Source: an uncultured Gemmatimonadota bacterium (GTDB taxonomy: Bacteria; JAAXHH01). From it: DNA of 64,000 nucleotides. This document shows, in pieces, positions 24,196 to 56,083 of the stretch. Position 1 is the stretch's first letter. Every line of letters starts with the position of its first letter. The stretch spans positions 1,664,001 to 1,728,000 of the forward strand of contig OX638340.1 in the NCBI GenBank assembly GCA_951812955.1, written 5' to 3'. A program made the translations under genes and the position numbers. Below the pieces are notes generated by a model. The model was given only the letters and a program-made list of their open reading frames with translations, was not told where the DNA came from and made no database searches.

Positions 24196-25839
24196 ATGCA
24201 ATACGGTTTCATCATCGACAACAGGAAATGTATCGGGTGCCACGCCTGCACCGTCGCGTGCAAGGCCGAGCACGAGGTGCCCCTCGGCGTCAACCGGACC
24301 TGGGTGAAATACATCGAGAAGGGGACCTATCCGAACACGACCAGGCATTTCTCGGTCATGCGGTGCAATCACTGCGAGGACGCCCCCTGCGTGGAGATCT
24401 GCCCGGTGACGGCGCTGTATACGCGGAAAGACGGCATCGTGGATTTCGATCCACGCAGATGCATCGGATGCAAGGGCTGCATGCAGGCCTGCCCGTACGA
24501 CGCGCTCTACATCGACCCGGACACCCATACGGCGGCAAAGTGCAACTACTGCGCCCATCGGGTGGATATCGGCCTCGAACCCGCCTGCGTGAACGTCTGC
24601 CCTGAACACGCCATCATATCCGGCGACATGGACGATGATTCCACGGAGATCGCCCAGTTGCTCGCGAAGGAACAGGTGACGGTCCGCAAGGTGGAAAAGG
24701 ACACGAAACCCCGCCTGTACTATATCGACGGCGACGAAGCCTCGTTGACGCCCGGGGAAACCGCGACGTCCGACAATTACATGTGGAGCTCACAATCGGA
24801 CGGCGTGGGCCACTTCGCAAGATACATCGAGGAAAGGACCGCCCGCGCGAATCCGGAGGACATGGTCAGACAGCTTGGTGGGGAGAACCAGGGCGGACAG
24901 GTTGGCGGCGGGCAAGATGGCGCCGGCGTACGCGGCGAACAAGATAGCGACAAAGATGAGAGATCCGGCAAAGGCGCCGCGGCGCGCAGGGTCTACGACG
25001 CGCCGGACAAGGGCGTGCTGTGGGGAAACGACGTAGCCGCATACGTTTGGACCAAGGCCATCTCGGCGGGTGCTTTCCTCCTTCCCTTCGCGGCCTCGGT
25101 CCTGGGCATGACGATAGATCCTTTTCTTTCCTGGTTCGGAAGTACCATCGCCCTGACCTTTCTCCTGGCCACGACGATCCTCCTGGTGAGCGATCTGACC
25201 CAGCCCAGACGATTTCTCTATGTACTGCTCCGTCCTCAGTGGAAATCCTGGCTCGTGCTCGGAGGCTACGCGTTGACCCTCTACGGGCTGGCGCTCACGC
25301 TGTGGGCCGTGGCAATGTGGACCGGCCGAACCGGGGCTGCCGAAATCATCGGCTGGATCGCGGCCGTACTGGCGGTCCTTACGGCTGTATATACGGCCTT
25401 TCTATTCGCCCAGGCCAAAGGACGGGATTTCTGGCAAAGCCCCACGCTCGTCCTGCACATGCTGCTCCACGCGGTGCTCGCCGGCGCGGGGGTTTTCGCT
25501 ATCGCGCTTCTGTTCAGTGCGTCGGGCGAAGCGTGGACCGCCTTCGTCCGGAATACGCTGATCGTCGCCATCATCCTGAACCTGCTCGTAATCGCATCTG
25601 AAATGCTGACCCCCCATCCGACCGCCGACGCGCGGAAAGCCGTGCAGGCCATCGTCCGCGGCCGGTACCGGGGGTATTTCTGGATCCTGGGCATCGCCCT
25701 GGGCAACATAGCGCCCGTCGTACTGGCCTGGGCCGGTGGCGAAACGATGCTCGCCGCGGCCGGCGTGGGCGTGCTGATCGGCCTGTACGCGACCGAGTAC
25801 GTCTGGGTCAGGGCGCCGCAGGACATACCGCTGAGTTGA
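24196..25839 (+). CDS. fusion protein: 4Fe-4S dicluster ferredoxin domain (DmsB/PsrB-like) plus NrfD/PsrC-like 8-TM membrane anchor
   Basis: N-terminal domain has four Cys clusters (CIGCHACTVAC, CNHCEDAPCVEICP, CIGCKGCMQACP, CNYCAHRVDIGLEPACVNVCP). Gly-rich linker. Eight predicted TM helices in the C-terminal ~280 aa. Confidence 0.75.
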   Translation: MQYGFIIDNRKCIGCHACTVACKAEHEVPLGVNRTWVKYIEKGTYPNTTRHFSVMRCNHCEDAPCVEICPVTALYTRKDGIVDFDPRRCIGCKGCMQACPYDALYIDPDTHTAAKCNYCAHRVDIGLEPACVNVCPEHAIISGDMDDDSTEIAQLLAKEQVTVRKVEKDTKPRLYYIDGDEASLTPGETATSDNYMWSSQSDGVGHFARYIEERTARANPEDMVRQLGGENQGGQVGGGQDGAGVRGEQDSDKDERSGKGAAARRVYDAPDKGVLWGNDVAAYVWTKAISAGAFLLPFAASVLGMTIDPFLSWFGSTIALTFLLATTILLVSDLTQPRRFLYVLLRPQWKSWLVLGGYALTLYGLALTLWAVAMWTGRTGAAEIIGWIAAVLAVLTAVYTAFLFAQAKGRDFWQSPTLVLHMLLHAVLAGAGVFAIALLFSASGEAWTAFVRNTLIVAIILNLLVIASEMLTPHPTADARKAVQAIVRGRYRGYFWILGIALGNIAPVVLAWAGGETMLAAAGVGVLIGLYATEYVWVRAPQDIPLS

Positions 25840-26009
25840 GTAGGACTTACCGCTGAGTTAAGAAGGACATAGCACCGAGCTGACATAAACGCTGCCTGGC
25901 CCGTTCCGGGAATCGGCACGGCCGGAAACTGCCCCGGGTTCGACGACATTCCACTGCCGCGGGCTCGACGACACAATGAAGGAAGACACAGCAGACAGGA
26001 ATCACCAAC

Positions 26010-28871
26010 ATGTCCATACGCCATAAACCGGGACTGATCGAATCGCTGGCCGAGAAAGTCGGCCTGATTCCCAACCTGCACGAAGAGGACGGACCGGATC
26101 TGCCCAGTCTCACCGAAGGCGGCGCGCTCACGGACTATCCGCCCCCTGACCAGTGGGACGACTGGGTGGAGTACGAGGCGCAGGACTGGCCGAAACAACA
26201 GGCCAAACACTACATGGTGGTGCCGACGGCCTGCTTCAACTGCGAGGCCGGGTGCGGACTCCTCAGCTACGTCGACAAGGAGACGATGGAAGTCCGCAAG
26301 TTCGAGGGGAACCCCTACCATCCCGCCAGCCGGGGACGCAATTGCGCCAAGGGTCCAGCGACCATAAACCAGATCCGTGACACGGACCGCATACTATACC
26401 CCATGCGCCGGTCCGGCGCCCGGGGAAGCGGGGAGTGGGAGCAGGTGTCCTGGGATACGGTGCTGGACGACATCGCGGCCCGGATACGGGAGCGGCTGCA
26501 ACAGGGCGCGAACAACGAAATCGCCTATCACGTGGGCCGGCCCGGGGCCGAAGGCTACATCGACCGCGTGCTCAAGGCCTGGGGCGTCGACGGGCACAAC
26601 AGCCACACCAACATCTGCTCGTCGGGCGCCCGCTTCGGCTACGCCCTATGGCATTTCTTCGACCGGCCGTCGCCCGACCACGCCAATGCGCGGTTTATCC
26701 TGCTGATCAGCGCTCACCTGGAATCGGGGCACTACTTCAATCCCCACGCACAGCGGATCATCGAGGGCATGATGAACGGCGCGAAGCTTGCCGTCATGGA
26801 CCCGAGACTGTCCAATACGGCCAGCATGGCCGACCACTGGTTGCCCACCTATCCCGGCAGCGAGGCCGCGGTATTGCTGGCCATGGCCAACGTCATCCTG
26901 CAGGACGGCCTTTACGATGCGGAGTTCATGAAGACGTGGGTGAACTGGCAGACCTACCTGGAGAAGGAACACCCGGAAGCACCGCGCACCTTCGATCGGT
27001 TCATCGAAGCGCTCAAGTCGGTCTACAGCGAGTACACGCCCGAGTTCGCCGAACAGGAGAGCGGCGTGCCGGCTGCCCAGATTGCCGAGATCGGCCGCGA
27101 GATCGGCCGGGCGGGATCGCGGTTCGCCACCCACAACTGGCGCAGCGCGGGTAGCGGAAACGCCGGCGGCTGGGCCGTGGCCCGCTGCCTCCACTTCCTG
27201 AACGTACTCACCGGCAGCGTGGGCACGGAGGGTGGGACCTCGCCGAGCGGGTGGAACAAGTTCAAACCCAACGTATTCGACCATCCCCCGGATCAGAAGT
27301 TTTGGAACGAACTGCATTTCCCGAAGGAATACCCCCTCTCCCACTACGAGATGAGTTTTCTCCTCCCCCATTTCCTGAAAGAAGGACGGGGGAAGCTGGC
27401 TGTCTACTTCACCCGGGTGTTCAATCCCGTGTGGACGTACCCGGACGGGTTTACCTGGGTCGAAGCGCTCCGCGATGAGGAGAAGGTCGGGCTGCACGCG
27501 GCCCTGACGCCTACGTGGAACGAGACCGCCTTTTTCGCCGACTACGTACTGCCCATGGGCCACGCCAGCGAACGCCACGACATTATCAGCTACGAGACCC
27601 ACTCGGGCACCTGGATCGGTTTCCGCCAGCCCGTCCTGCGCGAGGCCCGGCGTCGCATGGGCGACCCGGTGGATTTCACCTACGAGGCGAACCCCGGCGA
27701 GGTATGGGAAGAGGACGAGTTCTGGATCGAGCTGTCCTGGCGCATCGATCCCGACGGCAGCCTGGGGATCAGGGACCACTTCATCTCGCCGTACAGGCCG
27801 GGTGAGAAAATCACCATCGACGAATACTACCGGTACATCTTCGACAACGTGGACGGACTGCCCGAGGCCGCCGCGAAAGAGGATCTTTCAACTCTGGATT
27901 ACATGCGAAAGTACGGCGCCTTCGAGGTGGAGAAGACGGCCTACGCGAAACATCTCAAGACACTGGACGACGAGGCCGTCGCGGGCGCTAAGGTCGATCC
28001 GGAGACCAATGCCCTGGTCGCAGGCGGCAAGACCGTGGGCGTGATGGTGGACGGCGCGCCGCGGGCGGGCTTCCCCACGCCGTCTCTGAAGCAGGAGTTC
28101 TATTCCCAGACCATGGTGGACTGGGGCTGGCCGGAGTACGCCATACCCACCTACATCAAGAGCCACGTGCATCCCGACGAACTCGACCGTGAGAACGGCG
28201 AGTACCCGCTGGTGCCCACCTTCAGGCTGCCCACACTGATCCACTCGCGGTCCGGCAACGCCAAGTGGCTCAACGAGATCTCCAACCGCAATCCCGTGTG
28301 GATGCACCGGCGGGACGCCGAAAAGATGGGCATTGGCACGGACGACCTGGTCCGGGTGACCACCGAAATCGGCCATTTCGTCGACCGCGTCTGGGTCACC
28401 GAGTCCATGAAACCCGGAGTCGTCGCCTGCTCCCACCATCTCGGGCGCTGGCGGCGCAAACAGGACGCGGACGGAAACCGCTGGTCGGTGAACCTGGTGG
28501 ATATCCAGGAAGAGGACGGCGGGAAGTGGCGCATGCGTGTGATGGACGGAATCAGACCCTATGAAAGCGCAGACCGCGACTCCTCGCGCATCTTCTGGCG
28601 GGACGGCGGCGTGCACCAGAACATCACCTTCCCCGTGCACCCAGATCCCGTGAGCGGCATGCACTGCTGGCACCAGAAGGTCAAAGTGGAAAAGGCCCGC
28701 GAAGAGGACGCCTACGGGGACGTGATGGTGGATACGGAGAAGTCCTTCGAAGTCTACCGCGCATGGCTGGACCAGACCCGGCCCGCGCCAGGTCCGGGCG
28801 GCCTGCGCCGTCCCCTCTGGTTCAACCGACCCCTGCGTCCGGCCGAAGAGACCTTCTACCTGCCTGAATAG
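26010..28871 (+). CDS. molybdopterin oxidoreductase catalytic subunit (DMSO-reductase family, Psr/Phs/Ttr/Soe-like), no Tat signal
   Basis: N-terminal FeS motif C-x2-C-x3-C-x33-C (CFNCEAGCG...CAKG). 953 aa. An in-frame TGA sits 33 nt upstream of the ATG, so an N-terminal twin-arginine extension is not possible. Confidence 0.85.
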   Translation: MSIRHKPGLIESLAEKVGLIPNLHEEDGPDLPSLTEGGALTDYPPPDQWDDWVEYEAQDWPKQQAKHYMVVPTACFNCEAGCGLLSYVDKETMEVRKFEGNPYHPASRGRNCAKGPATINQIRDTDRILYPMRRSGARGSGEWEQVSWDTVLDDIAARIRERLQQGANNEIAYHVGRPGAEGYIDRVLKAWGVDGHNSHTNICSSGARFGYALWHFFDRPSPDHANARFILLISAHLESGHYFNPHAQRIIEGMMNGAKLAVMDPRLSNTASMADHWLPTYPGSEAAVLLAMANVILQDGLYDAEFMKTWVNWQTYLEKEHPEAPRTFDRFIEALKSVYSEYTPEFAEQESGVPAAQIAEIGREIGRAGSRFATHNWRSAGSGNAGGWAVARCLHFLNVLTGSVGTEGGTSPSGWNKFKPNVFDHPPDQKFWNELHFPKEYPLSHYEMSFLLPHFLKEGRGKLAVYFTRVFNPVWTYPDGFTWVEALRDEEKVGLHAALTPTWNETAFFADYVLPMGHASERHDIISYETHSGTWIGFRQPVLREARRRMGDPVDFTYEANPGEVWEEDEFWIELSWRIDPDGSLGIRDHFISPYRPGEKITIDEYYRYIFDNVDGLPEAAAKEDLSTLDYMRKYGAFEVEKTAYAKHLKTLDDEAVAGAKVDPETNALVAGGKTVGVMVDGAPRAGFPTPSLKQEFYSQTMVDWGWPEYAIPTYIKSHVHPDELDRENGEYPLVPTFRLPTLIHSRSGNAKWLNEISNRNPVWMHRRDAEKMGIGTDDLVRVTTEIGHFVDRVWVTESMKPGVVACSHHLGRWRRKQDADGNRWSVNLVDIQEEDGGKWRMRVMDGIRPYESADRDSSRIFWRDGGVHQNITFPVHPDPVSGMHCWHQKVKVEKAREEDAYGDVMVDTEKSFEVYRAWLDQTRPAPGPGGLRRPLWFNRPLRPAEETFYLPE

Positions 28872-28872
28872 T

Positions 28873-29742
28873 TCAGACCGTATCTCCCCGCAGGATGTCC
28901 CGGACGGCGGAGCACACCGCCTCGTCGGCATCCGGCATGGCACCGGTGCGCGACGCCACCCAGGCGCCGAGCCGGTTGGCGGCTTCGCTGACGCGTGCAA
29001 GCGGCACGCCACGCAGGAGGCCAGTTGCCAAAACCGCGGTGAAGGCGTCTCCGGCTCCGATGGTATCGACTACGTCCGCCGGGACACCCGGGTGGCCCAC
29101 GGTCTCAGACGAGGTAACCAGCAGGCTGCCTTCGGAGCCACGGGTGACGCAGACCAGATCCAGTTCGTAGGCCTTCAGCAACCGCCGGGCCATGGACTCG
29201 AGACCGGCATCCCCGAGGTCCAGCAGGGGACAGACGGTGCGCAGTTCTTCGTCGTTCAGCTTGACTGCGTGAGCACGCTGGAAAGAATCGTGCAGCAGGG
29301 CCGGAGAGTAACGGTCCTGCCTGAGGTTCACGTCGAAGAGCCGCAGGGCGGAGGGCCGCAGGGCGTCGAGAAACGCCGTGACGGCGGCGGTCGATTCCGC
29401 TTCATGCCGGGACACCGTCCCGAAGCATACGGCGTCCGAACGCGCGGCCAGCGCGGACCATTCGGGCGTCCACGCCATGTGCTCCCAGGCGACGACGCCG
29501 TTGATCGTGAAATCCGGCTGTCCGTCCGCCCCAATAGTTACGCCGACCGTCCCGGTGGGATGGGCGTCGTCCCGCTGAATCGCTGCGGTGGACAGCCCCT
29601 TGCCGGTAATGCGGTTCACGGCTTCGTTGCCGAGGTCATCCTGTCCGACCCGGCTCGCGACGATCCCCTCTTCGCCCAGGAGTGACGCGAAATAGGCGAA
29701 GTTCGCCGGGGCGCCGCCGAGTTGGGAACCCGACGGCAGCAA
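28873..29742 (-). CDS. PfkB-family sugar kinase (fructokinase / KDG-kinase-like)
   Basis: GG motif GGAPANFA and the C-terminal GAGDAF anion hole. PfkB N-terminal homology (KDRYVIVGLGELLWD) continues in frame upstream of the first canonical start up to the neighbouring gene's stop, so the start is uncertain. Confidence 0.65.
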   Translation of the reverse strand: MLPSGSQLGGAPANFAYFASLLGEEGIVASRVGQDDLGNEAVNRITGKGLSTAAIQRDDAHPTGTVGVTIGADGQPDFTINGVVAWEHMAWTPEWSALAARSDAVCFGTVSRHEAESTAAVTAFLDALRPSALRLFDVNLRQDRYSPALLHDSFQRAHAVKLNDEELRTVCPLLDLGDAGLESMARRLLKAYELDLVCVTRGSEGSLLVTSSETVGHPGVPADVVDTIGAGDAFTAVLATGLLRGVPLARVSEAANRLGAWVASRTGAMPDADEAVCSAVRDILRGDTV

Positions 29743-31529: not shown

Positions 31530-32597
31530 ATGACCACTGACGACCGCCTCGTATCTCTGCTCCAGGAACTCGTGTACGCCCGGGGACCTTCAGGCCAGGA
31601 GGACGAGGTCCGGACGGTCTGTGAACGGGAACTGCAAACTCTTTGCGACGAGACCCGGGTCGACGCCGCCGGCAACGTCATCGGCCTGATGAAGGGTCTA
31701 AAGGCGGACGCCCCGGTAATCCGTGTGATGGCGCACCTGGACGAACTGGCCCTGGTCGTCAAGCGCGTCAACGAGGACGGAACCCTCCGGGTCAATCCAC
31801 TCGGAGGCATCTACCCGGCGAACTACGGGCAGGGACCTGTCGAGATCCTGGCGGACAGCGGCATCCTTCCCGGCGTGCTCTCTGTCGGACCGCAGCATAC
31901 AACGGCCGATTCCGCCCGGATCTGGGAGACCAAGATCAAGGGCGGCAACGTGGCCATGGATTGGAATCACGTGTACGTGTTCACGCGCATGACGCCGGCG
32001 CAGCTGCGGGAAGCGGGCGTGCACGCCGGCACCCGCGTGGTCATCGCCCGGTCACGGCGAGCATTCCTGGAAGTCGAAGACTGCATCGGCGGGTATTTCA
32101 TGGACAATCGGGCGGCCATCGCCATCGCCATCGGCGCGGCCGCGCGTATGAGGGACCAGGGCGTCCGGCCCGCTGGCGACGCCTACCTGGTGATGACCAC
32201 CTGCGAGGAGATCGGCGGCCACGGCGCCGCGTACGCCGCGCGGACCCTGCCCGGCGACGTGTCCCTGGCCGTGGATTCAGGACCGGCCTGCGAAGAATAC
32301 GGGGTGGCCCTTTCCGACGACCCCGTCGTAGTATACGGCGACGCCGGGGGACTCTACGACAAGTCCGTCGCGGACCGCCTGCTGGCATGCGGGCGGGAAC
32401 TGGGCATGGACCCCCAGTGCGCGTACTGGCAGAGCTACGCCTCCGACGCGTCCATGGCGAAGTCCGTGGGCCAGACGCCCCGGGCCGGCCTGCTCTGCAT
32501 CCCCACGGAGAACACCCACGGATACGAGATCATACCCCGCAACGGGTTGAACCGGTGCGTCGCCCTGCTGGCGGCCTACCTTGAAAAACCGGAGTAG
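31530..32597 (+). CDS. M42 family metallopeptidase (glutamyl aminopeptidase / FrvX-like)
   Basis: M42 motifs (DDRLVSLLQELV, AHLDELAL, GGYFMDNRAAIA, EEIGGHGA). Confidence 0.8.
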   Translation: MTTDDRLVSLLQELVYARGPSGQEDEVRTVCERELQTLCDETRVDAAGNVIGLMKGLKADAPVIRVMAHLDELALVVKRVNEDGTLRVNPLGGIYPANYGQGPVEILADSGILPGVLSVGPQHTTADSARIWETKIKGGNVAMDWNHVYVFTRMTPAQLREAGVHAGTRVVIARSRRAFLEVEDCIGGYFMDNRAAIAIAIGAAARMRDQGVRPAGDAYLVMTTCEEIGGHGAAYAARTLPGDVSLAVDSGPACEEYGVALSDDPVVVYGDAGGLYDKSVADRLLACGRELGMDPQCAYWQSYASDASMAKSVGQTPRAGLLCIPTENTHGYEIIPRNGLNRCVALLAAYLEKPE

Positions 32598-32619
32598 CCG
32601 AGAGGAGCGGAGGACCTTC

Positions 32620-33885
32620 ATGTCCCTGAAAGTCACCAACGTGGAAAGATTCACCGTCACCGTGCCCTTCACGCAGGGTCAACGGCCCATGGCCGAGCGA
32701 ACGGTATACAACTGGTCCGTCTTCGAACTGTGCAAGGTCTCAACCGACGCCGGGCTCGTGGGCTGGGGCGAGACCATCGTCCATTACATCCATGCGCGGG
32801 TGACCGACCGGAGCGTGGAACGCGTCATGGGAAAGAGCCCTGCGGACTTCATGCAGGACGATACGATTGGCGCCGGGCTGCAGATGGCCCTGTACGACGT
32901 GGTGGGCAAAGCGCTCGAGGTGCCCTGCCACAAGCTCCTGGGCAACAAGGTGCGTGACTGGGTGCCCATTTCCTGGTGGTCCAACGAAGGGCCTCCAGAC
33001 GACTGGGTCCGACAGGCGCGGGACGCTGTAGACAACGGGTACACCACCATCAAGCTCAAACAGCGGCCCTGGCATGACATCAACGAACAGATGGAGGCGA
33101 TCGACGCATCCGTGCCGCGCCACTTCCGGGTGGATCTCGACGCCAACGGTTCCATGCACAACGCGGCGGCGGCCATGCCCGTCATGCGCGGCCTGGAGCG
33201 ATTCGACATCGTGGCCATGTTCGAGACGCCCATACCGCAGACCGACATCCTGGGGAACCGCCAGCTCCGGCAGGTCATCAACCGTCCCATCGCCATGCAT
33301 TTCGGCTCGCCGCCCTACACCACGGTGGTCCGCGAAGCGGTATGTGACGGTTTCGTCGTCGGTGGAGGCGCCTCGCGGGTGATGTACCAGGGGATTCTCA
33401 GCGCGGAAGCCAACATGCCCTTCTGGCTCCAGATGGTCGGCAACGGACTTACCACCACGTGGGCCGCCCATCTCGGCGCCGTGCTCACCCACGCCACCTG
33501 GCCCGCCATCACCTGTATCAACCTGTACCGCCACCACCTGCTCAAAAGTCCCATCGAAGTCGTGGGCGGCTTCCACCGCGTGCCCGACGGACCGGGTCTG
33601 GGCGTGGAAGTGGACGAAGAGGCCATGCACGGCTTCCTCGTTCCAAACGACGTGATGCGGCCATTCCACGACCGGGACGAGCCGTACGACTTCCCGAGGC
33701 CCCGGTTTATCCGCACGGCGGTGTTTCCGGATGGGCGCCGCGTCCATTTTGGGAATATCCGCCACGGGTGGGAACTGGAGGCCTACACGCCCGGCGTACG
33801 CACGGAATACTGGCGGGAAGACGGCACCGAAGGTTTCGAAGACCTCTGGAGCCGTACGCAGGAACGGCCCGTATCCGAGGGATGA
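32620..33885 (+). CDS. enolase-superfamily enzyme (mandelate racemase/muconate lactonizing family)
   Basis: KLKQ and VDLDANGS barrel motifs. Start ATG 32620 with a GAGGAGCGGAGGA ribosome-binding site. The stop lies inside the first unit of the 21-bp repeat array. Confidence 0.75.
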   Translation: MSLKVTNVERFTVTVPFTQGQRPMAERTVYNWSVFELCKVSTDAGLVGWGETIVHYIHARVTDRSVERVMGKSPADFMQDDTIGAGLQMALYDVVGKALEVPCHKLLGNKVRDWVPISWWSNEGPPDDWVRQARDAVDNGYTTIKLKQRPWHDINEQMEAIDASVPRHFRVDLDANGSMHNAAAAMPVMRGLERFDIVAMFETPIPQTDILGNRQLRQVINRPIAMHFGSPPYTTVVREAVCDGFVVGGGASRVMYQGILSAEANMPFWLQMVGNGLTTTWAAHLGAVLTHATWPAITCINLYRHHLLKSPIEVVGGFHRVPDGPGLGVEVDEEAMHGFLVPNDVMRPFHDRDEPYDFPRPRFIRTAVFPDGRRVHFGNIRHGWELEAYTPGVRTEYWREDGTEGFEDLWSRTQERPVSEG

Positions 33886-34052
33886 ACGACCGGGGTGGTC
33901 GGACGAACGACCGGGGTGGTCGGACGAACGACCGGGGTGGTCGGACGAACGACCGGGGTGGTCGGACGAACGACCGGGGTGGTCGGACGAACGACCGGGG
34001 AGGTCGGACCAAACGACCGGGGAGGCCGGACCGAGCGACCGGGGAGGCCGGA
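33884..34052. repeat. 21-bp tandem array x8 (GAACGACCGGGGTGGTCGGAC), each unit an internal palindrome CGACC-N5-GGTCG
   Basis: Seen directly: five perfect copies at 33884-33988 and three degenerate copies to 34052. No unique spacers. Intergenic, between the enolase-family gene and the SDR gene. Confidence 0.9.
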
Positions 34053-34172
34053 CCAGACCGCATGGTGAGAACGGTGCCACGTTGACACGTAACCAGGGAT
34101 CGGTAAACTGCCGGCAAGACGGGCATTTCTTAAAAATTCGTATAAGGAAGACCAGGTAACCGGAGCAGAACC

Positions 34173-34922
34173 ATGAGACTGGAAGACAAGACTGCGATCG
34201 TAACCGGCGCGGCATCGGGCATTGGACGAGGCACCGCGGAGATGATGGCGCGGGAAGGCGCCCGGGTAGTGGCCGTGGACATCAACGAAGTGGGACTGGA
34301 ACAGACGGTCGAATCGATCCGCCTGGAAGGCTGGGCGGCCACGGCCTGCGTCGCAGACGTGGGGCGGGACGATCAGGTTCGACGCATGATTCAGTGCGCG
34401 GTCGACACCTATGGCGGACTGCAGATCCTGCACAACAACGCCTACTGGCACGCGCCCGGTCCGGTCTGCGACCTCCCGGAAGCCGACTGGGACCGGACGC
34501 TGAACGTCTGCCTGAAGGCTATCTACCTGGGCAGCAGGCACGCCATTCCGGTCATGAAAGATTCGGGCGGCGGCGCGATCGTAAACACGGCGTCTGTGCA
34601 CAGTCTGGTTGGTTTCCGGGACTACGCCGCCTACGACGCGGCCAAGGGCGGGGTGATCGGGATCACGCGCTCCGTGGCCGTGGACTACGGGCCCGAGATC
34701 CGAAGCAACGCGGTGCTGCCCGGCGCCATCCTGACGCATGCCTGGGACGGTCTCGACGAAGCGATTCAACGGCCCTATATCGACCGGCCTCCCATGAAAC
34801 GGCTGGGACTGCCGGAAGACATCGCCTCAGCCGTGGTGTTTCTCGCCTCCGACGAGGCGTCCTTCATCACCGGCGCCAGCCTCGTGGTCGACGGCGGCCT
34901 GACCATCGTCGGCGACGCGTAA
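34173..34922 (+). CDS. SDR family oxidoreductase
   Basis: TGAASGIGRG Rossmann motif, NNAY, and the catalytic YDAAK. Confidence 0.85.
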   Translation: MRLEDKTAIVTGAASGIGRGTAEMMAREGARVVAVDINEVGLEQTVESIRLEGWAATACVADVGRDDQVRRMIQCAVDTYGGLQILHNNAYWHAPGPVCDLPEADWDRTLNVCLKAIYLGSRHAIPVMKDSGGGAIVNTASVHSLVGFRDYAAYDAAKGGVIGITRSVAVDYGPEIRSNAVLPGAILTHAWDGLDEAIQRPYIDRPPMKRLGLPEDIASAVVFLASDEASFITGASLVVDGGLTIVGDA

Positions 34923-36518: not shown

Positions 36519-37610
36519 ATGCCGTTTTTCAACAAGGGAATGGAGTGCCAAGTGTCCAATAAGAAGAAATGCCTGATGATCGGCGCCGGCGGCATGGCCG
36601 GCGGTTGGATTCGCAGTTTCTACCCGCGGTTCAAGGACCGGCACGAGATCGTCGCACTGGTGGATATCAACGCGGATATTCTCCACGACGCGGGGGATTT
36701 CCTGGGGCTTCCCCGGAGTCACAGGTACACGGACATGGAGAGCGCTTTCGGGGAGGTGGACGCGGACTACTGCACAATCGTCATTCCCCCGGCCGTTCAC
36801 CGGGACGCCGTGATGCTGGCGGTGGAGCATAAGCTGGACATCCTGAGTGAAAAACCGATTGCCGACACGTGGTCCGCATGCGTAGATATATACAGGGCGG
36901 TAATGGATGCCGGCCTGAAGATGCACGTGATTCAAAACTACCGCTATTCCAGCCGCATGCTGACGATGCGGCAGGTATTGCGAGACGGAGCGCTTGGACG
37001 GATCAACTACATCCAGGGCCGATTTGCCGCGGACTACCGGGAATACGGCGCCTGGGGCGCCTTCCGCTACGAAATACCGCACACCCTGCTCGTGGAAGGC
37101 GCCGTGCATCACTTTGACATGATGCGGAATCTTTCGGGGGGAGACTGCAAGACGATCGCCGGTTGGGAGTGGAACCGGCCGTGGAGCACCTTCCAGGGGG
37201 ATTGCTGCGCCATGTACGTGATGGATATGACCAACGGGGTGAAGGCGGCCTACGAGGGGTCGTGCCTGGGCGCCGCCGAACAGAACAGCTGGCACGGGGA
37301 GTACTACCGGGCGGAATGCGAAGAGGGTGCCGTCGCCATTGGAAGCGACGGGGTCACGCGCATGTATAGACATACGCCCGGAAAGGGTATGTGCGTCGAA
37401 GACGTCAGCCCCGTCGTTCCCGAATACGACGGACACCAATGGCAGATCAACGAGTTTCTCGACTGGATCGACGGGGGACCCGCACCCGATACATGCCTGG
37501 AGCACAACATCCGGAGCGTGGCCATGGTCTTCGCCGCCATCGAAGCTTCGAAGACAGGAGAGTCGATCGACGTGGAGGAAATGGTCGGGCAGGTCGTAAA
37601 CACCGCTTGA
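36519..37610 (+). CDS. Gfo/Idh/MocA family oxidoreductase
   Basis: N-terminal Rossmann GAGGMAGG and a dehydrogenase C-terminal domain. Alternative start at ATG 36540. Confidence 0.75.
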   Translation: MPFFNKGMECQVSNKKKCLMIGAGGMAGGWIRSFYPRFKDRHEIVALVDINADILHDAGDFLGLPRSHRYTDMESAFGEVDADYCTIVIPPAVHRDAVMLAVEHKLDILSEKPIADTWSACVDIYRAVMDAGLKMHVIQNYRYSSRMLTMRQVLRDGALGRINYIQGRFAADYREYGAWGAFRYEIPHTLLVEGAVHHFDMMRNLSGGDCKTIAGWEWNRPWSTFQGDCCAMYVMDMTNGVKAAYEGSCLGAAEQNSWHGEYYRAECEEGAVAIGSDGVTRMYRHTPGKGMCVEDVSPVVPEYDGHQWQINEFLDWIDGGPAPDTCLEHNIRSVAMVFAAIEASKTGESIDVEEMVGQVVNTA

Positions 37611-37722
37611 AGGAGAGAACGGGAACTGCCTGAAGGAGAAAACGGGAACTGCCGTTGACGGGGAGAAAGTGATTGGACCGGTGACGGGCGCCGCCTGAGA
37701 GAGGTACGGGTACCAAATTCAT

Positions 37723-38949
37723 ATGCAGAACCAGAAAATCCCTTTTATAAACGCATTTTTGAGACTGGAATCCGCCAGCGGCATTCTGCTGATGCTCGCG
37801 ACCGCCCTGGCCATGGTGTTCGCGAACTCGTTCCTCGAACCGCTCTATCATCGATTGCTGGAGATAGAGATCGAGATCCGCATCGCCGCCCTGGATATCA
37901 ACAAACCGCTGCTCCTCTGGATCAACGACGGTCTGATGACCATCTTCTTCTTCCTCGTGGGACTGGAATTGAAGCGGGAATTCCTCGAGGGCGAGCTGTC
38001 GAACCGGCGCAACATCATCCTGCCCGGCATCGGCGCCGTCGGCGGTATGGTGGTCCCCGCGCTGATCTATCTCCTCATCAACAGCGACGACCCCTCCGCC
38101 TGGCGGGGCTGGGCCGTCCCGGTCGCTACGGACATCGCCTTTACCCTGGGCGTATTGACCTTGTTGGGTACGCGCGTGCCCATTTCGATCAAGGTCTTCC
38201 TGACCTCGCTGGCCATCCTGGACGACATCGGCGCGATCTTGATCATCGCGGTATTCTACACGGCGGAAATTTCGATGACCGCCCTGATAGTGGCCGCGGG
38301 TTGCGTACTCGTGCTGGTCTTCCTGAACAACAGGAACTGGGTCTCCCACAGTTCGTACATGATGGTCGGCATAGTCCTCTGGATCGCCTTGCTTAAATCC
38401 GGAGTGCACGCAACGCTTGCGGGCGTGATCCTGGCCGCGTTCATCCCCATGCGTTCCAGGACCGACCCCGACGTCTCGCCACTCAAGATCCTGGAGCACG
38501 ATCTGCACACCGTCGTGGCCTTCGTCATCCTTCCCGTGTTCGCTTTCGCCAACTCCGGTGTCATGTTGAGCGGCATTACGGCCGAACAGGCGCTTCACGG
38601 CGTACCCGTCGGGGTCGCCCTCGGACTGTTCCTGGGCAAGCAGATCGGGATATTCGCACTGTGTTGGCTGTTCATCAAGATGAAAGTGGCCGCGCTGCCG
38701 AGGGGGATGTCCTGGGCTGGCCTCTATGGGGCAAGTACCCTGTGTGGGATCGGATTCACCATGAGCCTGTTCATCGGTTCGCTGGCCTTCGGCGAAACCG
38801 ATATTCACGCCATGTTCGACGAGCGGCTGGGGATCATCGTGGGATCGCTACTGTCGGGGGTGTTGGGCTATGCCATCCTCCGATACAGCCTGCCGCCCGC
38901 CGACAAGCCGGAAGAGGTCGTCGAGCAAGAGGTCGAGCAGGTGGTTTGA
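37723..38949 (+). CDS. nhaA: Na+/H+ antiporter NhaA
   Basis: Full-length NhaA signature across 12 TM helices, including the conserved ATDIAF and the paired-Asp region. Confidence 0.9.
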   Translation: MQNQKIPFINAFLRLESASGILLMLATALAMVFANSFLEPLYHRLLEIEIEIRIAALDINKPLLLWINDGLMTIFFFLVGLELKREFLEGELSNRRNIILPGIGAVGGMVVPALIYLLINSDDPSAWRGWAVPVATDIAFTLGVLTLLGTRVPISIKVFLTSLAILDDIGAILIIAVFYTAEISMTALIVAAGCVLVLVFLNNRNWVSHSSYMMVGIVLWIALLKSGVHATLAGVILAAFIPMRSRTDPDVSPLKILEHDLHTVVAFVILPVFAFANSGVMLSGITAEQALHGVPVGVALGLFLGKQIGIFALCWLFIKMKVAALPRGMSWAGLYGASTLCGIGFTMSLFIGSLAFGETDIHAMFDERLGIIVGSLLSGVLGYAILRYSLPPADKPEEVVEQEVEQVV

Positions 38950-39152
38950 GGGGGATGATAGCAAAGATGACAGTTCATATATTCGAATTTAAGCATAAAC
39001 TGACTAGCATTCTCTACGTTGCAATTCCCAATTCATACACGCAAGCCTTACGCTGACCGGTCGTACATAGCTAGTTTGGAAAGGCACACATCTATCTAAC
39101 ACTTCACGATAGATCCATTTGGCCATTTCTGTAAGAAAACTGCAGTTTCTTT

Positions 39153-40835
39153 TTAGCTATTGGGCATAGATGTAGGATGTATCTGGTCAAGTGAAGTCTT
39201 AAAGTCCTTTATTTCATAAAGTATAAATCGATCCGCATCATTCAATAAACCACGTAAACGATTCCCATAGTCTATATCGAGATGTTTCTGGCCACCGTGT
39301 ATTATTGAGTGTATTAAAAAACTCCTCATGTATCCTTCATCACCACTTTCATTAAGACGACTGACTTCTCTAAGTACAACTTCGAACATTTCAACAATAA
39401 ACCTATACTCAAATCGCTCAGATTCCAAGATTGTGGCGAGACAAGTCCCAAGTGCAACTGCAGAAGACAAAGGGATGTTATCGTTTGGAAGTGACCAAGT
39501 ATTCCAATCAAGAATTACCCCGTTGTTTTGCTTTGGTAGGTTTCTATGGTGTGAGTCATCTGGTAATTCAGAAACTAGATGAATCCAACTACATAAAGTG
39601 CTTAATACCACATAAACCAATCTAGCCGATCGTGTTGGGAATTCGTCTGTAGTATCCACAGATGGATCAGACGAATCATAGGAACCTTCCAAAGCATCGA
39701 TAACAGACGTCATGTAATAAAGCCACATATGCCATGTAACACCCTGATAGGCTGCGGCTTTAACCATAAGGTCGAAAAACACAACTCCGACAAACACACC
39801 ATTCTCCCAACACTCATAATCGAATTCAACCGCAGTACCCTGTAAGTAATCTACAAAATCAGAAGACTTGTTTGGATTCAGTAACTGTAGGATATGCTTC
39901 CCAACCGGTTGCCATACTTCCAGTTGTAGCGCTATGTTTGCATTCGAAAAGAGAAAATACAAGAGACGATTGCTTACAGGAAACTCATAGCCATGTTGGT
40001 AAGAAATGTTCTGGTTGTATTGGATTTCTTGGTATAGAACGCTTCCTGTGTCAGCGATTAACAGGCTTAAGTATTTTTCAGAAAACTGACGACTACCAAA
40101 TATGTCCTGGTAAATCAGCGGAATCGCAAAGTACGGTCTATTTGTTGCGATATAAACCCGAAGTTCTTCGGACTGAAAAAACACGCGCGCGATGTTTTCC
40201 GCAGAATCTTGAGCACTGTACTGACTAGGTACAATAAACGCTAGTTTACCAAGCCATCGTCGCCCCACTTTAAACAAACCACTTCGATGTGTTGCTGCAG
40301 ATTGTGATTCCTGATCCAAAACCGTGTATCTTAATGCCGCAATATCTCCTTGCATGGCCCCCAAATTGTCATGATGTCGTTGTAAAAACAGCTTTCGATG
40401 TGATGCCTTCCCAATTACTGGTAAATAGGGTTCGATGAATTCAAGCAATTCAGAATACCGCTTTTCAAGCGATAACCGATCTACTATTCGAGCGATTCTT
40501 ACTAGCAAAAAGGACGAGAATAGCCTCGGGATGCTCAAGTGTATTACTATAGCAAAGATGATCCAAAACAAGACTACGAAAAAGGCAACACCGGAGGGAG
40601 AAAGTGGGCTGGATTCTTTGAAAACAATCCACGTGCATAAACTACCTAGAACAGCTGGGCAAGGTTGCCCAAAAACTTCGAAAAACTCAAGATAAACTAC
40701 TATGAAAAGCGAAACTAACGCTAGTGGGATCTGAAGGACAATGACCAGCTTAGCACGTAGTTTATCAACATGCGTGGCAAGTGTATATGCAGCTAGTACT
40801 AGAGTTAAGAATGTTAGAAAACCGTCTAGGGTCAT
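39153..40835 (-). CDS. hypothetical protein: N-terminal multi-TM segment plus a ~400-aa soluble domain, in an AT-rich islet
   Basis: Long ORF whose GC (~40%) is far below the contig's. Four to five N-terminal TM helices. No recognisable motifs. Confidence 0.55.
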   Translation of the reverse strand: MTLDGFLTFLTLVLAAYTLATHVDKLRAKLVIVLQIPLALVSLFIVVYLEFFEVFGQPCPAVLGSLCTWIVFKESSPLSPSGVAFFVVLFWIIFAIVIHLSIPRLFSSFLLVRIARIVDRLSLEKRYSELLEFIEPYLPVIGKASHRKLFLQRHHDNLGAMQGDIAALRYTVLDQESQSAATHRSGLFKVGRRWLGKLAFIVPSQYSAQDSAENIARVFFQSEELRVYIATNRPYFAIPLIYQDIFGSRQFSEKYLSLLIADTGSVLYQEIQYNQNISYQHGYEFPVSNRLLYFLFSNANIALQLEVWQPVGKHILQLLNPNKSSDFVDYLQGTAVEFDYECWENGVFVGVVFFDLMVKAAAYQGVTWHMWLYYMTSVIDALEGSYDSSDPSVDTTDEFPTRSARLVYVVLSTLCSWIHLVSELPDDSHHRNLPKQNNGVILDWNTWSLPNDNIPLSSAVALGTCLATILESERFEYRFIVEMFEVVLREVSRLNESGDEGYMRSFLIHSIIHGGQKHLDIDYGNRLRGLLNDADRFILYEIKDFKTSLDQIHPTSMPNS

Positions 40836-40933
40836 TTCAACAATCCTTCTCTTAGTAAATGGGTTTACTTCCAGTCAGGAACTCTAAAGAGCATATAAAA
40901 TAGAGTTTTTAAAAAGATCATATGGTTCTTTTA

Positions 40934-42100
40934 CTACGCTTTCTCCAACGCCTGGTCCAGATCGGCGATGATGTCGTCCGGGTCTTCCAGGCCCACCGAA
41001 ACGCGCGCTCTAAAACCGCCATCCGCGCTCTCGCCCGAGGGCAGGATCAACGTCTCCACATCGCCCAGACTATACCACGGCTTGCACATCTTTAGCCGGC
41101 CTAAAAAGCGGTCGAGCGAGACGCCGGGCTTGGAGACGAACCGCATCATTCCCCCAAAACCGTGCAGGTATCCGGTCGCGACCTCGTGATTCGGGTGTGA
41201 GGTCAGGCCCAGGTAGTCGACACGGGTGATCTTTTTGTGCTGGTCCAGGTACTCCGCCACCTTCTGGCCGCTGCCGCAGTGCCGCTCCATCCTGAAGGCC
41301 AGCGTCTTGAGGCCCCGGTGTACGAGGAAGGCGTTCATGGGCGCCAGCACGCCACCCATGAGGATCCGCATAAAATGTATCTGCTTCCTGATCTCTTCGT
41401 CGCGGCCGGAGACGATCCCGGCAAGGGCGTCACCGTGCCCGGCCATGTACTTCGTCATGGCGTGGAGGACCACGTCGGCGCCGTAGTGCAGAGGCCGCAG
41501 CAGGTAGGGCGATAGAAAGGTGTTGTCGACCACCACCAGGGCTCCAGCTTCATGGGCCATGTCCGTGGCGCGTGCTAGATCGATGAATTCCATGGAGTGG
41601 GCGTACGGTTCGAAATAGACCATCCTGGTCGGCTTTTTAAGCGCGGTTTCGAGTGCGTTCAGTTCGCACAGGTTTACCATCTGGACTTCCACGCCCCACT
41701 TCGTCGGCAGCACGTCCTGGAACAGCATGTGGGTCCCGGCATAAACGGTCTCGTGACAGACCACCCGGTCGCCGCTTTTAAGCAGGCCGAACAAGGTCTG
41801 GCTGACCGCCGACATGCCGCACGAGGTCGCCTGCGCCCACTCCGCGCCTTCGAGGATCCGCACCTGTTCTTCGAGCGCGCCGCTGGTGGGACCGCCCGCC
41901 TTGTCCAATCCCCGGCCGTAGGAGTTCGTCCCCTCGTAACCCTCGCGGTAGTTGGTGTTTCCCTGGTAGATCGGCACCGAAGACGACGTGCCATGGTACC
42001 CGCCGTGGATGGCGTCCGTGGTAAAATCCCGGTTGTCGGCCGACTGGTAGTCATCGGCTGCGAAACGGAGGTCGTTACGGAGGTCGTGGTTGTTGGGCAT
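40934..42100 (-). CDS. Cys/Met-metabolism PLP-dependent enzyme (methionine gamma-lyase / cystathionine gamma-synthase family)
   Basis: PLP-lysine motif AMTKYMAGHGD and the trans-sulfuration fold family. Confidence 0.8.
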   Translation of the reverse strand: MPNNHDLRNDLRFAADDYQSADNRDFTTDAIHGGYHGTSSSVPIYQGNTNYREGYEGTNSYGRGLDKAGGPTSGALEEQVRILEGAEWAQATSCGMSAVSQTLFGLLKSGDRVVCHETVYAGTHMLFQDVLPTKWGVEVQMVNLCELNALETALKKPTRMVYFEPYAHSMEFIDLARATDMAHEAGALVVVDNTFLSPYLLRPLHYGADVVLHAMTKYMAGHGDALAGIVSGRDEEIRKQIHFMRILMGGVLAPMNAFLVHRGLKTLAFRMERHCGSGQKVAEYLDQHKKITRVDYLGLTSHPNHEVATGYLHGFGGMMRFVSKPGVSLDRFLGRLKMCKPWYSLGDVETLILPSGESADGGFRARVSVGLEDPDDIIADLDQALEKA

Positions 42101-42242
42101 AGTAAGAATCCCTCAGTTAAACACTACGGGGCTATGGTGGAGTCTGGACCAATGCAGAACCAGTGGACAAACAGATCGAGAAAGAACCCGGGTTCTTGAC
42201 TGGTTTAAGGTAAATGGGGGTTAAAGGGGGTCAAGCCATATC

Positions 42243-42325
42243 AGTCGTGCTTCGTGGGATGTCGAGATCATGATTCCACGCTATATCATTCAGGTTATTA
42301 CGATTTCATTCGGCATTAACGTTTG
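42243..42325 (+). pseudogene. remnant of a HigB-family toxin C-terminus (…ASWDVEI…) upstream of an orphan HigA
   Basis: A short open frame encodes SRASWDVEI, which resembles the conserved HigB C-terminal (A)WDVEI(x)DYH block. The frame is closed by an upstream TAA, so no full toxin ORF exists. Confidence 0.35.
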
Positions 42326-42347
42326 ACGTTAATAACACGTAACGTTA
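42315..42347. promoter_or_regulatory. palindromic operator-like sites (ATTAACG-N5-CGTTAAT and TAACGTTA) upstream of the HigA-family gene
   Basis: Perfect inverted repeats seen at 42315-42333 and 42340-42347, in an AT-rich stretch ~80-110 nt upstream of the HigA ATG. Confidence 0.4.
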
Positions 42348-42426
42348 TTATTGTATTAGCATGATGATATCGTTCAAAGACCATTTTCGTACAGTCGAAC
42401 TTGTCGATTACCATTAGGAGTCAGAT

Positions 42427-42732
42427 ATGCCTTCCGACTTGATGCACCCAATTCATCCCGGTGAGATCCTCAAGGAAGAGTTTCTGGAACCATTAGGCCT
42501 GAGTCAGTATCGTGTCGCTGTGGACATTTCAGTTCCACCGCGCCGTATAAACGAAATCGTTCACGGCAAACGCTCTATATCCGCTGACACGGCATTACGG
42601 CTGGCACGCTATTTCGGAACTACGGATCGTTTCTGGCTGAACCTACAGACACACTACGACCTGGAGAAGGAAAGAGATCGCTTAGGAAATCGATTGGAGA
42701 CCGAGGTACTTGTACTGGAGCGATCGAACTGA
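42427..42732 (+). CDS. higA: HigA-family antitoxin / XRE-type HTH protein (COG3093-like)
   Basis: Canonical HigA N-terminus HPGEILKEEFLEPLGLSQYRVA...PRRINEIVHGKRSISADTALRLARYFGT...FWLNLQTHYDL. Confidence 0.8.
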   Translation: MPSDLMHPIHPGEILKEEFLEPLGLSQYRVAVDISVPPRRINEIVHGKRSISADTALRLARYFGTTDRFWLNLQTHYDLEKERDRLGNRLETEVLVLERSN

Positions 42733-42746
42733 AGCCGCAAAAGTTT

Positions 42747-43751
42747 ATGTCTCAACACCCGGCATCTCTTACCAAACTACTGCACAAAGCCAGTATTAAG
42801 CGCGGGGGCATTCGATGCGTAGAACCGATCGGCGATGGCGTAACCAACCGGACCCTATTGGTTACTCTGAAGGACGGCAAGCGCTACGTCCTACGCGAAT
42901 ACGATTGGCCTTACCCTTCAAGTGATAATCTCCAAAGACTCGATAAAGAGGTTTATCTACACAATCTGCTTCTAAAATACGATGTACCGGTTCCGTCCAT
43001 CGTTGCCAGTCACGACGATGGAAGTAACTGTGCCGTGCTGATGGAGTATATGCCAGGATTGCTTCTTGGAAATGTTGTAGATACCCTGACTGAAGTACAA
43101 CGGGCTCAAGCCTGGCGGGCTGCCGGAACAGCTTTACGGAATGTTCATTCGATCCGGCTGCTTGATGGCTGTTCGGGCGTGATCGTCGGTGAGCGCGTCC
43201 AGCCTTTTGAAGAAGGATCCTGGGGAGACTTTCATTTCCATCAGGCTATACAGCATGCGAATCACCTACTGAAGCGGGATGTGGGATTGCATTTCGACCT
43301 GCCGTCGATGAAGAACGTATTGAAACAGGCGGTTCCCCTGCTGAACGAATCTCCGGTGGTCCTGCTGCACAACGACCCCCATCCCTGGAATGTGCTTGTT
43401 AACGAGGTAGCCGGCCATTGGACCTGTTCAGCATGGCTTGACTGGGAATACGCCTGGTCAGGAGACCCGGTCTGGGACCTTGTTCGGACCGATCTGTTCC
43501 GGTTGAAACGGATCGGTCCCACGCCGGACGCCTTCTACGAGGGATATGGCGCTTTCCCTCGAGAACCGAATCGAAGTATCTACGAACTTTCCATTAACCT
43601 TTGGATGGCCGACCAGTACCTGGATGGAGAAATAGACGAGGAACGGGTACTCATGCCCACCTACGAGGCGGCGATGCAGTACCTGGGCCGGATCGACGAA
43701 GCGGTGGTAAGGATCGGAAACGAGCTTGAAAGGGCTGACCGGCTGCCTTGA
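42747..43751 (+). CDS. phosphotransferase-family (APH/choline-kinase-like) kinase
   Basis: Brenner motif HNDPHPWNVLV and the D-x-E/D motif LDWEYAWSGDP. Starts 15 nt after the HigA-like gene. Confidence 0.75.
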   Translation: MSQHPASLTKLLHKASIKRGGIRCVEPIGDGVTNRTLLVTLKDGKRYVLREYDWPYPSSDNLQRLDKEVYLHNLLLKYDVPVPSIVASHDDGSNCAVLMEYMPGLLLGNVVDTLTEVQRAQAWRAAGTALRNVHSIRLLDGCSGVIVGERVQPFEEGSWGDFHFHQAIQHANHLLKRDVGLHFDLPSMKNVLKQAVPLLNESPVVLLHNDPHPWNVLVNEVAGHWTCSAWLDWEYAWSGDPVWDLVRTDLFRLKRIGPTPDAFYEGYGAFPREPNRSIYELSINLWMADQYLDGEIDEERVLMPTYEAAMQYLGRIDEAVVRIGNELERADRLP

Positions 43752-43789
43752 AACGGGTGAGGAGTTGGTAGTCTTACTGTAAAAGGAAT

Positions 43790-44227
43790 GTGATCATGGA
43801 TTCGGTTTTCACAAGGATTATCCGAGGGGAGTTGCCCGCTTACTTCGTATGGCGTGATGACCAAGTGGTCGCGTTCCTTTCCAAGTCGCCCTACAGTACT
43901 GGGCATACGCTGGTTGTCCCGCGATTGGAGGTCGATCACTGGATTGATCTTGAACCGGCGCTGCTGCGACGGATCATGACGGTCTCGCAGGAGGTGGGAA
44001 AGGCTATTCAGCAGGCGTTCAACCCGGCCAAAGTGGGCATGCTGATCGGGGGATTGGAAGTCCGCCACGTACATGTGCATCTGTCACCGGTGAATTCCGT
44101 CCACGACTTTGACTATGATCGCCAGCAATTGAGCCCGGTTCCAGAGTCACTCGAGCAGGCCGCTAGAAAGATCCGTGCCGCGCTAGTGGAACTGGGACAT
44201 GCTTCGGTTGTACCAGGAGATGATTGA
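43790..44227 (+). CDS. HIT (histidine triad) family protein
   Basis: HIT motif RHVHVHL and an N-terminal IIRGELPA. Confidence 0.8.
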   Translation: MIMDSVFTRIIRGELPAYFVWRDDQVVAFLSKSPYSTGHTLVVPRLEVDHWIDLEPALLRRIMTVSQEVGKAIQQAFNPAKVGMLIGGLEVRHVHVHLSPVNSVHDFDYDRQQLSPVPESLEQAARKIRAALVELGHASVVPGDD

Positions 44228-45367: not shown

Positions 45368-45433
45368 TTGAATAGCCTGGCACGACCACCAGGTATTTTA
45401 TATTTGCTCTTCATCCTTAACTAGGGTCAGTAC

Positions 45434-45853: not shown

Positions 45854-45886
45854 ATTCAAGGTCGAATCAAGGTCGAACTCGGCTGA

Positions 45887-56037: not shown

Positions 56038-56083
56038 TTCCTACGCAATTAAATCGACGGAAGAATAAACTATAGAAACAAGA

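Follow-up and report, generated by a model that had tools for sequence, protein, structure and literature searches.

Bacterial intergenic loci with a variable number of tandem repeats (VNTR), or minisatellites, carry a non-coding unit of 10-100 bp in head-to-tail copies, the number of which differs among close relatives at the orthologous locus. They are locus-specific and degenerate at one end, their accepted origin is slipped-strand mispairing, and they serve in multilocus VNTR analysis (MLVA) typing, as do the Wolbachia VNTRs (PMC3287509). The repetitive extragenic palindromic sequences and bacterial interspersed mosaic elements (REP/BIME) of Enterobacteria and Pseudomonas are imperfect palindromes able to form a stem-loop; they are dispersed in tens to hundreds of extragenic copies and alternate in orientation with linker motifs. 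Mycobacterial interspersed repetitive units (MIRU), reportedly described by Supply et al. in 1997, are said to form one family of 46-101 bp units that occupy about 40 dispersed loci and carry small open reading frames (ORFs). Direct repeats of the intergenic heptamer TAACTGA are found in Beggiatoaceae, Cyanobacteria and Bacteroidetes (∼169 loci, most of them directly ahead of start codons) and have been proposed to act post-transcriptionally (PMC4679880). Here we analyze a tandem array of eight units located between a gene of the enolase superfamily and a gene for a short-chain dehydrogenase/reductase (SDR) in a 64,000-nucleotide stretch of contig OX638340.1 from an uncultured Gemmatimonadota bacterium (hereafter, the window). 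The array is very probably a lineage-specific intergenic minisatellite of the VNTR type, in which a 22-mer resident just past a stop codon was amplified by slippage, and no dedicated function is needed to explain it. Literature searches turned up no account of intergenic arrays anchored at stop codons for these bacteria; the nearest match is the TAACTGA repeats, which are likewise short direct repeats between genes but differ from the present units, these being 21-22 nt long, unique to their locus and anchored to a stop codon (PMC4679880).

The array and its orthologous single copies

Tandem Repeats Finder (TRF) places the strongest array of the window by far at 33880-34053 (period 21, 8.2 copies, 94% matches, score 274). 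Read unit by unit, the array extends over 33884-34054 and consists of 21-mers in five identical copies and, behind them, three variant 22-mers (Table 1), all on the + strand and abutting head-to-tail with neither linker nor spacer. The preliminary description had reported eight copies, five perfect and three degenerate, behind the enolase-family gene, and this is confirmed; the exact 21-mer GAACGACCGGGGTGGTCGGAC occurs five times and has 0 matches in 100 dinucleotide-preserving shuffles. The array does start at the upstream stop codon, the overlap being the last two bases of TGA (33883-33885), which form the opening GA of unit 1, and it ends 118 nt ahead of the SDR start (34173), close to the ∼120 nt first estimated. 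The end itself, initially placed at 34052, has to be moved to 34054 because units 6-8 are 22 nt long, and for the same reason the periodicity of 21 bp is not strict. The unit is palindromic as claimed. The motif CGACC-N5-GGTCG, thought to be present in every unit, is found in units 1-6, whereas units 7 and 8 read CGACC-N5-GGCCG; mismatches of the degenerate units 6, 7 and 8 to the 21-mer number 1, 3 and 3. The array had also been distinguished from a CRISPR, correctly so, as CRISPR repeats are split by unique spacers of similar length and the units here abut.

The order of genes around the array (M42 peptidase, enolase-family gene, SDR, MatE and GFO oxidoreductase, all by Pfam, and then NhaA) is conserved in metagenome contigs and in metagenome-assembled genomes (MAGs). 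The related MAGs are labelled Latescibacterota or Gemmatimonadetes, and many of them come from sponge or coral samples, judged by isolate names (IRC1, APA, Plut, IrcVar). In each of the three closest available relatives, L027, L028 and L026, a single unit sits at the stop codon of the enolase-family gene. The number of units at the orthologous site is 8 in the window, 1 in these three relatives and 0 in L001, L025 and others, a difference in copy number of the kind that marks VNTR loci. The enolase-SDR spacer measures 287 nt in the window and 138 nt in both L027 and L028; the difference of 149 nt equals 5x21 + 2x22, or exactly seven extra units. The variants are ordered along the array, with unit 8 the most ancestral, followed by unit 7, unit 6 and units 1-5 through successive single changes. 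Unit 8 is taken as ancestral since it is most similar to the single copy of the relatives. In L026 and L030, which are more distant, the spacer aligns with the region past the array (34055-34172) but contains added insertions (alignment A2). These observations establish the single-copy ancestor, the exact arithmetic of the units and the gradient of variants; the uniqueness of the unit to this locus is shown by the searches described below.

The pattern can be accounted for by a short series of events. The 22-nt sequence after the stop codon, which shares two bases with it and is single-copy in the sister species, would have been expanded in the window lineage into eight head-to-tail copies by slipped-strand mispairing in replication. 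A C-to-T change would first have generated the perfect CGACC/GGTCG stem seen in unit 6; next, an A would have changed to T and one C been lost, and this last variant would then have multiplied to the five identical copies beside the stop codon. Hairpins formed by the units in single-stranded DNA probably helped slipped intermediates to persist. When folded as single-stranded DNA, the amplified variant reaches -5.2 kcal/mol compared with -4.3 kcal/mol for the ancestral variants, which fits hairpin-stabilised slippage but is no proof of it. In L028, GAACG at 1483 and 1506 flanks the single unit; the pair is suggestive of microhomology, though without an exact match to the 22-nt unit.

Several points weigh against this history. 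Slippage as the process and neutrality of the array are what we infer, the mechanism being read from the pattern and not observed, and absence of function cannot be demonstrated from sequence. The differences in copy number are between species (8, 1 and 0) and not between strains, in which the array departs from VNTR loci, as it does in the overlap of its first unit with a stop codon. The amplified variant also has the best hairpin, and selection for structure would explain its amplification as well. Finally, if the source is a short-read assembly, the number of perfect copies might be wrong. An assembler would in that case have inflated or collapsed the number of identical 21-mers in an otherwise real array; five such units over 105 nt are hard for short k-mers, and the short-read scaffold L024 (1-117), from a relative with an SDR of 98% identity, starts directly beyond the array position, at nt 11 of the single-copy tail. 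This start fits a contig break induced by the repeat and thereby suggests that the L024 population has the array. Such an artefact is most improbable for the window, however, given that three ordered variant units and an exact arithmetic of 149 nt are unlike the product of a graph loop and that many genomes of the clade are whole-chromosome assemblies with comparable arrays. It would moreover alter only the count of units and not the nature of the feature.

Within the enolase superfamily, the Pfam domains of the upstream gene place it in the mandelate racemase / muconate lactonizing enzyme branch. Its start is likely the ATG at 32620, which would give a protein of 421 aa, and its homologues are all ∼421 aa long with a common terminal residue. 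The array was also considered as a coding repeat and rejected, as the 22-nt units break the frame, the homologues end at the common residue and a codon-usage gene finder picks no ORF across it. Two long antisense ORFs (32740-34215 and 33783-34769) were discarded as GC-driven artefacts.

Searches for further copies of the unit

The array has the general look of REP/BIME, being a short GC-rich extragenic palindrome just past a stop codon with a potential stem-loop at the mRNA 3' end, and the preliminary description had likened it to such arrays. Under this reading the units would be mobile palindromes spread by a transposase of the REP-associated tyrosine transposase (RAYT) type. Other copies were sought in the window, in clade DNA and in public genomes and metagenomes, and none was found. 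No further copy with ≤3 mismatches occurs in the 64 kb window (0 matches), nor does the unit occur elsewhere in the ∼555 kb covered for the clade. Across 185,579 species, each represented by a single genome, the 21-mer (W allowed at one position) gave 0 exact matches. Its 20-mer core AACGACCGGGGWGGYCGGAC has nine single matches in Joint Genome Institute (JGI) metagenomes, all on unrelated contigs of 57-72% GC and none in tandem, about the number that we estimate for chance. A profile of the unit was further run with nhmmer --max over 890 kb, comprising the window and every fetched related locus; up to a limit of E = 1 its matches were confined to the array, its single-copy orthologues, the contigs chosen through the pattern scan and further copies of an unrelated repeat particular to L015. 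On the 21-mer, 20-mer-core and unit-profile searches, a dispersed family was rejected for the DNA covered.

The repeat in L015 (880-1200), on a metagenome contig of 71% GC, has a period of ∼59 bp and 4-5 copies, ends with an inverted copy, begins shortly past a stop codon and includes CAACGACCGGGGAGG. As a relative of the array it was rejected; the locus is unrelated, and the resemblance of the core looks like chance.

Orientation and ancestry point the same way as the searches. All units are direct and head-to-tail, while BIMEs typically alternate in orientation. The orthologous single copy means that the sequence was already resident at the site, and the array is derived from it in place. 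The chance that a REP/BIME-like element is involved is accordingly close to nil. Genomes with REP/BIME also encode a cognate RAYT (Y1 transposase); among the 26 proteins of the window that were scanned against Pfam, none is a Y1 transposase. The preliminary description had linked a unit unique to this locus with expansion by replication slippage, and the unit proved unique in all searches for other copies.

The array resembles MIRU in having tandem units in operon spacers, ends that overlap stop or start codons and a variable copy number. It differs in that no single family of units recurs at many operon junctions: every array of the window and the clade has its own, unrelated unit, and periods of 21 and 22 nt keep no reading frame. 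We conclude that the array originated by local expansion and is an ordinary slippage-type minisatellite, neither a dispersed REP nor a demonstrated regulatory device.

Intercistronic RNA and regulatory readings

A conserved GGAG (34162-34165) lies 7 nt upstream of the SDR ATG, and several relatives have a very short spacer; both features indicate an enolase-SDR operon, in which case the array is probably transcribed as intercistronic RNA. The transcript had been expected to carry eight consecutive small hairpins. The RNA fold instead predicts one long imperfect rod of units 1-6 as the minimum-free-energy structure (-84.6 kcal/mol, z = -2.9), and none of 200 shuffles (0/200) folds as stably; with its flanks included, the array RNA has a z of -1.7. 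As DNA, each of units 1-6 folds at -5.2 kcal/mol into a hairpin with 5 bp in the stem and 5 nt in the loop, whereas units 7 and 8 contain an A.C mismatch in the CGACC stem and fold via a 4-bp CCGG/CCGG stem instead. In the single copy of the close relatives, only a short CCGG-type stem is possible.

Stem-loops of the REP type in the malEFG operon of E. coli and intercistronic hairpins in the puf operon of Rhodobacter stabilise the upstream mRNA, and a comparable function could be imagined for the rod. It would either block 3'-to-5' exonucleases or act as a terminator without U-tract ('I-shaped'), leaving the enolase segment more abundant than the downstream genes, and SDR transcription would be restored from a sigma-70-like site, TTGACA-16-TAAACT (34082-34109, 10/12), that lies 27 nt past the array. 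The -35 hexamer of this site is a perfect TTGACA only in the window, the relatives having TAGACA (L024, L027) or TAAACA (L028). The stability of the array fold favors a functional RNA of this kind, as do the sigma-70-like site and the small hairpin for which even relatives with a single unit have the potential directly past the stop. Other observations count against it. Intrinsic terminators consist of a GC-rich hairpin followed by a U-tract, attenuators having in addition a leader ORF or a ligand-sensing fold, and no T-run follows the array; the sole terminator-like match between 33500 and 34500 lies inside the enolase gene, with none in or after the array, and no Rfam family matches at E ≤ 1. 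The attenuator reading of the preliminary description has no support from these results either. With its flanks, the fold is unexceptional. The structure is not conserved either, as relatives have 0-1 copies or unrelated repeats, and the stem mismatch of the older units is uncompensated. In L044, L025, L048, L032 and L040 the spacer is reduced to 1-34 nt, which implies that no such element is needed for the two genes to operate as a tight operon. A functional intercistronic RNA is thus unlikely, although less so than the other regulatory role that has been suggested.

That other role is as iterated protein-binding sites, which the preliminary description held to fit as well, given the equivalence of 21 bp to two helical turns. 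The 15-bp core CGACC-N5-GGTCG would serve as an operator, half-turn-phased at ∼21 bp, and regulate SDR-MatE-GFO. In favor of this role are the palindromic core, its regular spacing and the position of the array ahead of a promoter-like site. The argument from helical turns is weakened, however, by three of the eight units being 22 bp and by periods that range over 8-71 bp in the other arrays of the genome and the clade. Two of the units spaced at 22 bp also break the palindrome, and the site is not conserved, the close relatives having a single copy with only the short CCGG-type stem. No regulator gene adjoins the locus. The other arrays of the window have unrelated units with periods of 11-38 bp, and hence share no recognition sequence. 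Taken together, the data make binding sites very unlikely.

The terminator, Rfam, palindrome-conservation and neighbour-gene checks gave no support for a dedicated role. What the minisatellite is predicted to do is to lengthen the enolase-SDR intercistronic RNA by 149 nt and to place in it a stable GC-rich rod. As the most plausible side effect, the rod could retard 3'-to-5' degradation or lead to a degree of U-independent termination.

Tandem duplication at stop codons of the clade

The enolase-SDR junction is a recurrent duplication hot spot, with at least six unrelated tandem duplications (Table 1). The spacer orthologous to window 33886-34172 could be measured in 23 relatives with an enolase identity of 80-98% (loci compared: L001, L023 and L025-L049), where it varies from 1 to 180 nt; in an outgroup of 77% identity it is 367 nt. 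Reading of the spacers further revealed about two copies of the L023-type 21-bp unit in L046 and L049, and in L033 and L037 a pair resembling the 19-bp duplication of L031 and L038. The 21-bp arrays of L023 and L026, which have different units, prompted the idea that the whole spacer is an ancient degenerate 21-bp array. This was rejected, as no significant autocorrelation signal for a residual 21-bp periodicity was detected in the non-array spacer of five species, and the 21-bp period shared by three of the arrays at this junction therefore looks coincidental.

A second junction of the same locus behaves similarly. Between the M42 stop and the enolase start, the window (32589-32614) has a single CCGGAGTAGCCGAGAGGAGCGGAGGA with two occurrences of CGGAG at a distance of 18 bp; L023 has at this junction (6248-6363) the 18-mer CCGGAGTAACTGAGCGGA, repeated 6.4 times. 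As read from these sequences, the L023 array carries the hallmark of short direct repeats that misaligned, with expansion as the next step. The 18-bp unit CCGGAGTAACTGAGCRGA comprises the last two M42 codons, TAA and 9 nt, and is present in 3-6 copies in five related species. Within it lies the heptamer TAACTGA, most simply read as the TAA stop and its context; the agreement with the Beggiatoaceae heptamer is probably coincidental. The ACTGAG/TAACTGA motif, considered as a shared signal, is enriched in non-coding DNA, an enrichment driven by multi-copy homologous arrays.

Elsewhere in the compared loci, the convergent molybdopterin-oxidoreductase and PfkB genes are separated by a 1-nt gap in the window (28871-28873) and by ∼200 nt in L023 (2938-3061), where the gap is made of 55-bp and 11-bp tandem repeats starting at a stop codon.

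Within the window, TRF detects 13 arrays with a score ≥ 50 and nine with a score ≥ 70. Nine intergenic arrays other than the one described here have periods of 11-38 bp and 2-4 copies, their units are all different, and six of the nine include or abut a stop codon.

Table 1. Array units, flanking genes, orthologous single copies and other tandem arrays. Window coordinates refer to the 64,000-nucleotide stretch; copies are given as period x number.
Locus	Coordinates	Strand	Feature	Unit	Remarks
Window	33884..33988	+	Array units 1-5	21 nt each, all GAACGACCGGGGTGGTCGGAC	Derived variant; perfect 5-bp stem CGACC/GGTCG
Window	33989..34010	+	Array unit 6	22 nt, GAACGACCGGGGAGGTCGGACC	Intermediate variant; loop A, additional 3' C
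Window	34011..34032	+	Array unit 7	22 nt, AAACGACCGGGGAGGCCGGACC	
Window	34033..34054	+	Array unit 8	22 nt, GAGCGACCGGGGAGGCCGGACC	Closest to single copy of relatives (alignment A2)
Window	34055..34172	+	Single-copy spacer remainder		Collinear with spacers of L024, L027 and L028
Window	32620..33885	+	Upstream gene, enolase superfamily		MR_MLE_N + MR_MLE_C (Pfam); 421 aa
Window	34173..34922	+	Downstream gene, SDR		Pfam; 249 aa; synteny kept in all relatives
L027 (OY762445.1, complete chromosome)			Single unit	GAGGGATCGGGGAGGCCGGATC	At stop: TGAGGGATCGGGGAGGCCGGATC; enolase 98% aa identity
L028 (APA_bin_41)			Single unit	GAACGACCGGGGAAGCCGGACC	At stop: TGAACGACCGGGGAAGCCGGACC; enolase 97% aa identity
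L026 (Ircinia variabilis metagenome)			Single unit	GAGCGACCGGGGAAGCCGGACT	At stop: TGAGCGACCGGGGAAGCCGGACT; enolase 93% aa identity
L036			Array in enolase-SDR spacer	61 bp x2.3	Takes in last codons, stop and homologue of window unit
L023			Array in enolase-SDR spacer	21 bp x4	Unit is last three codons + TGA + 10 nt
L026			Array in enolase-SDR spacer	21 bp x3	Unit differs from window unit
L031, L038			Array in enolase-SDR spacer	19 bp x2.4-2.6	
L041			Array in enolase-SDR spacer	17 bp x3	
L043			Array in enolase-SDR spacer	28 bp x2	Stop included
L035			Array in enolase-SDR spacer	15 bp x2	
L023	6248-6363		M42-enolase array	18 bp	
L030	9935-9998		M42-enolase array	18 bp	
L036	9897-9993		M42-enolase array	18 bp	
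L046	9934-9993		M42-enolase array	18 bp	
L049	9915-9993		M42-enolase array	18 bp	
Window	2643-2693		Other array		
Window	9853-9889		Other array		
Window	11719-11793		Other array	23 x3.3	Spans stop; ATGA stop/start overlap in each unit, three times
Window	20370-20419		Other array	19 x2.6	Ends 3 nt from minus-strand stop
Window	25820-25871		Other array	22 x2.4	Spans stop
Window	37608-37653		Other array	23 x2	Starts at TGA of GFO gene
Window	45856-45877		Other array	11 x2	Starts 3 nt past stop
Window	53178-53323		Other array	38 x3.8	Spans minus-strand stop
Window	57604-57678		Other array		

The placement of 101 arrays in 555 kb of clade loci was compared with random placement, genes being called by a codon-usage gene finder trained on Pfam-verified genes. 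Arrays are depleted inside coding sequence (36 observed, 76 at random) and enriched in intergenic DNA (39 and 15). Those touching a stop codon number 23 where 4.4 are expected at random, those touching both a stop and a start 2 (1.0 at random) and those touching a start 1 (4.4 at random). In total, 25 stop contacts are set against 3 start contacts, with ∼5 of each expected at random. The density of arrays was also compared between the clade loci (L001, L023 and L025-L049) and control loci (L050-L060). At a TRF score ≥ 50, the clade has 1.93 arrays per 10 kb as against 0.65 for the Poribacteria loci, and the densities in E. coli (0.2) and S. meliloti pSymB (0.3) are lower still; at a score ≥ 70, the clade has 1.23 and the Poribacteria loci 0.39 per 10 kb, and there are none in 150 kb of pSymB and E. 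coli. Both comparisons are to be read with the caveats that start calls are approximate, that the controls are small and that the clade loci are orthologous, so that array events are not independent.

A duplication that spans a stop codon leaves both genes intact, and selection is hence a sufficient explanation for the bias of stops over starts. The array between the enolase-family gene and the SDR gene is one instance of clade-wide spacer growth by tandem duplication from the upstream stop. Whether it is also the most extensive visible outcome of a process specific to the clade, in which spacers are built and rebuilt by stop-anchored tandem duplications in these sponge- and coral-associated bacteria, is a more tentative proposition, one that we regard as possible but favor less than its contrary. 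If it held, an array density 6-10 times that of ordinary genomes and the stop bias would point to one of two causes, either a lineage-specific deficit in the suppression of slipped misalignment, such as a lack of single-strand exonucleases, or selection for uncoupling neighbouring cistrons.

Two other features of the window were recorded. The 913-aa ORF at 53296-56037 (-), whose stop codon is overlapped by the 38-bp x3.8 array, has altronate/galactarate dehydratase domains only in residues 29-541, and its C-terminal ∼370 aa are without a Pfam match. The GC content falls to 0.47-0.55 at 38000-46000 and 56000-58000, compared with ∼0.60-0.65 elsewhere, and an ORF at 39153-40835 (-), between NhaA and a Cys/Met-metabolism gene, has no counterpart in L001, L025 and L026; the low-GC segments and this ORF are probably acquired DNA.

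Taken alone, the array matters little, being a minisatellite of textbook type with a well-resolved origin from a single copy in sister species and seven added units, though it could act as a strain marker for an uncultured symbiont. The richness of the clade in short intergenic arrays, often starting at stops, is a more interesting lead than the array itself, which is mainly useful as an entry to the fast, clade-wide turnover of operon spacers by stop-anchored duplication. This pattern deserves a check at genome scale, and the clade offers a convenient natural system for how intergenic DNA arises in compact genomes and affects the expression of operons.

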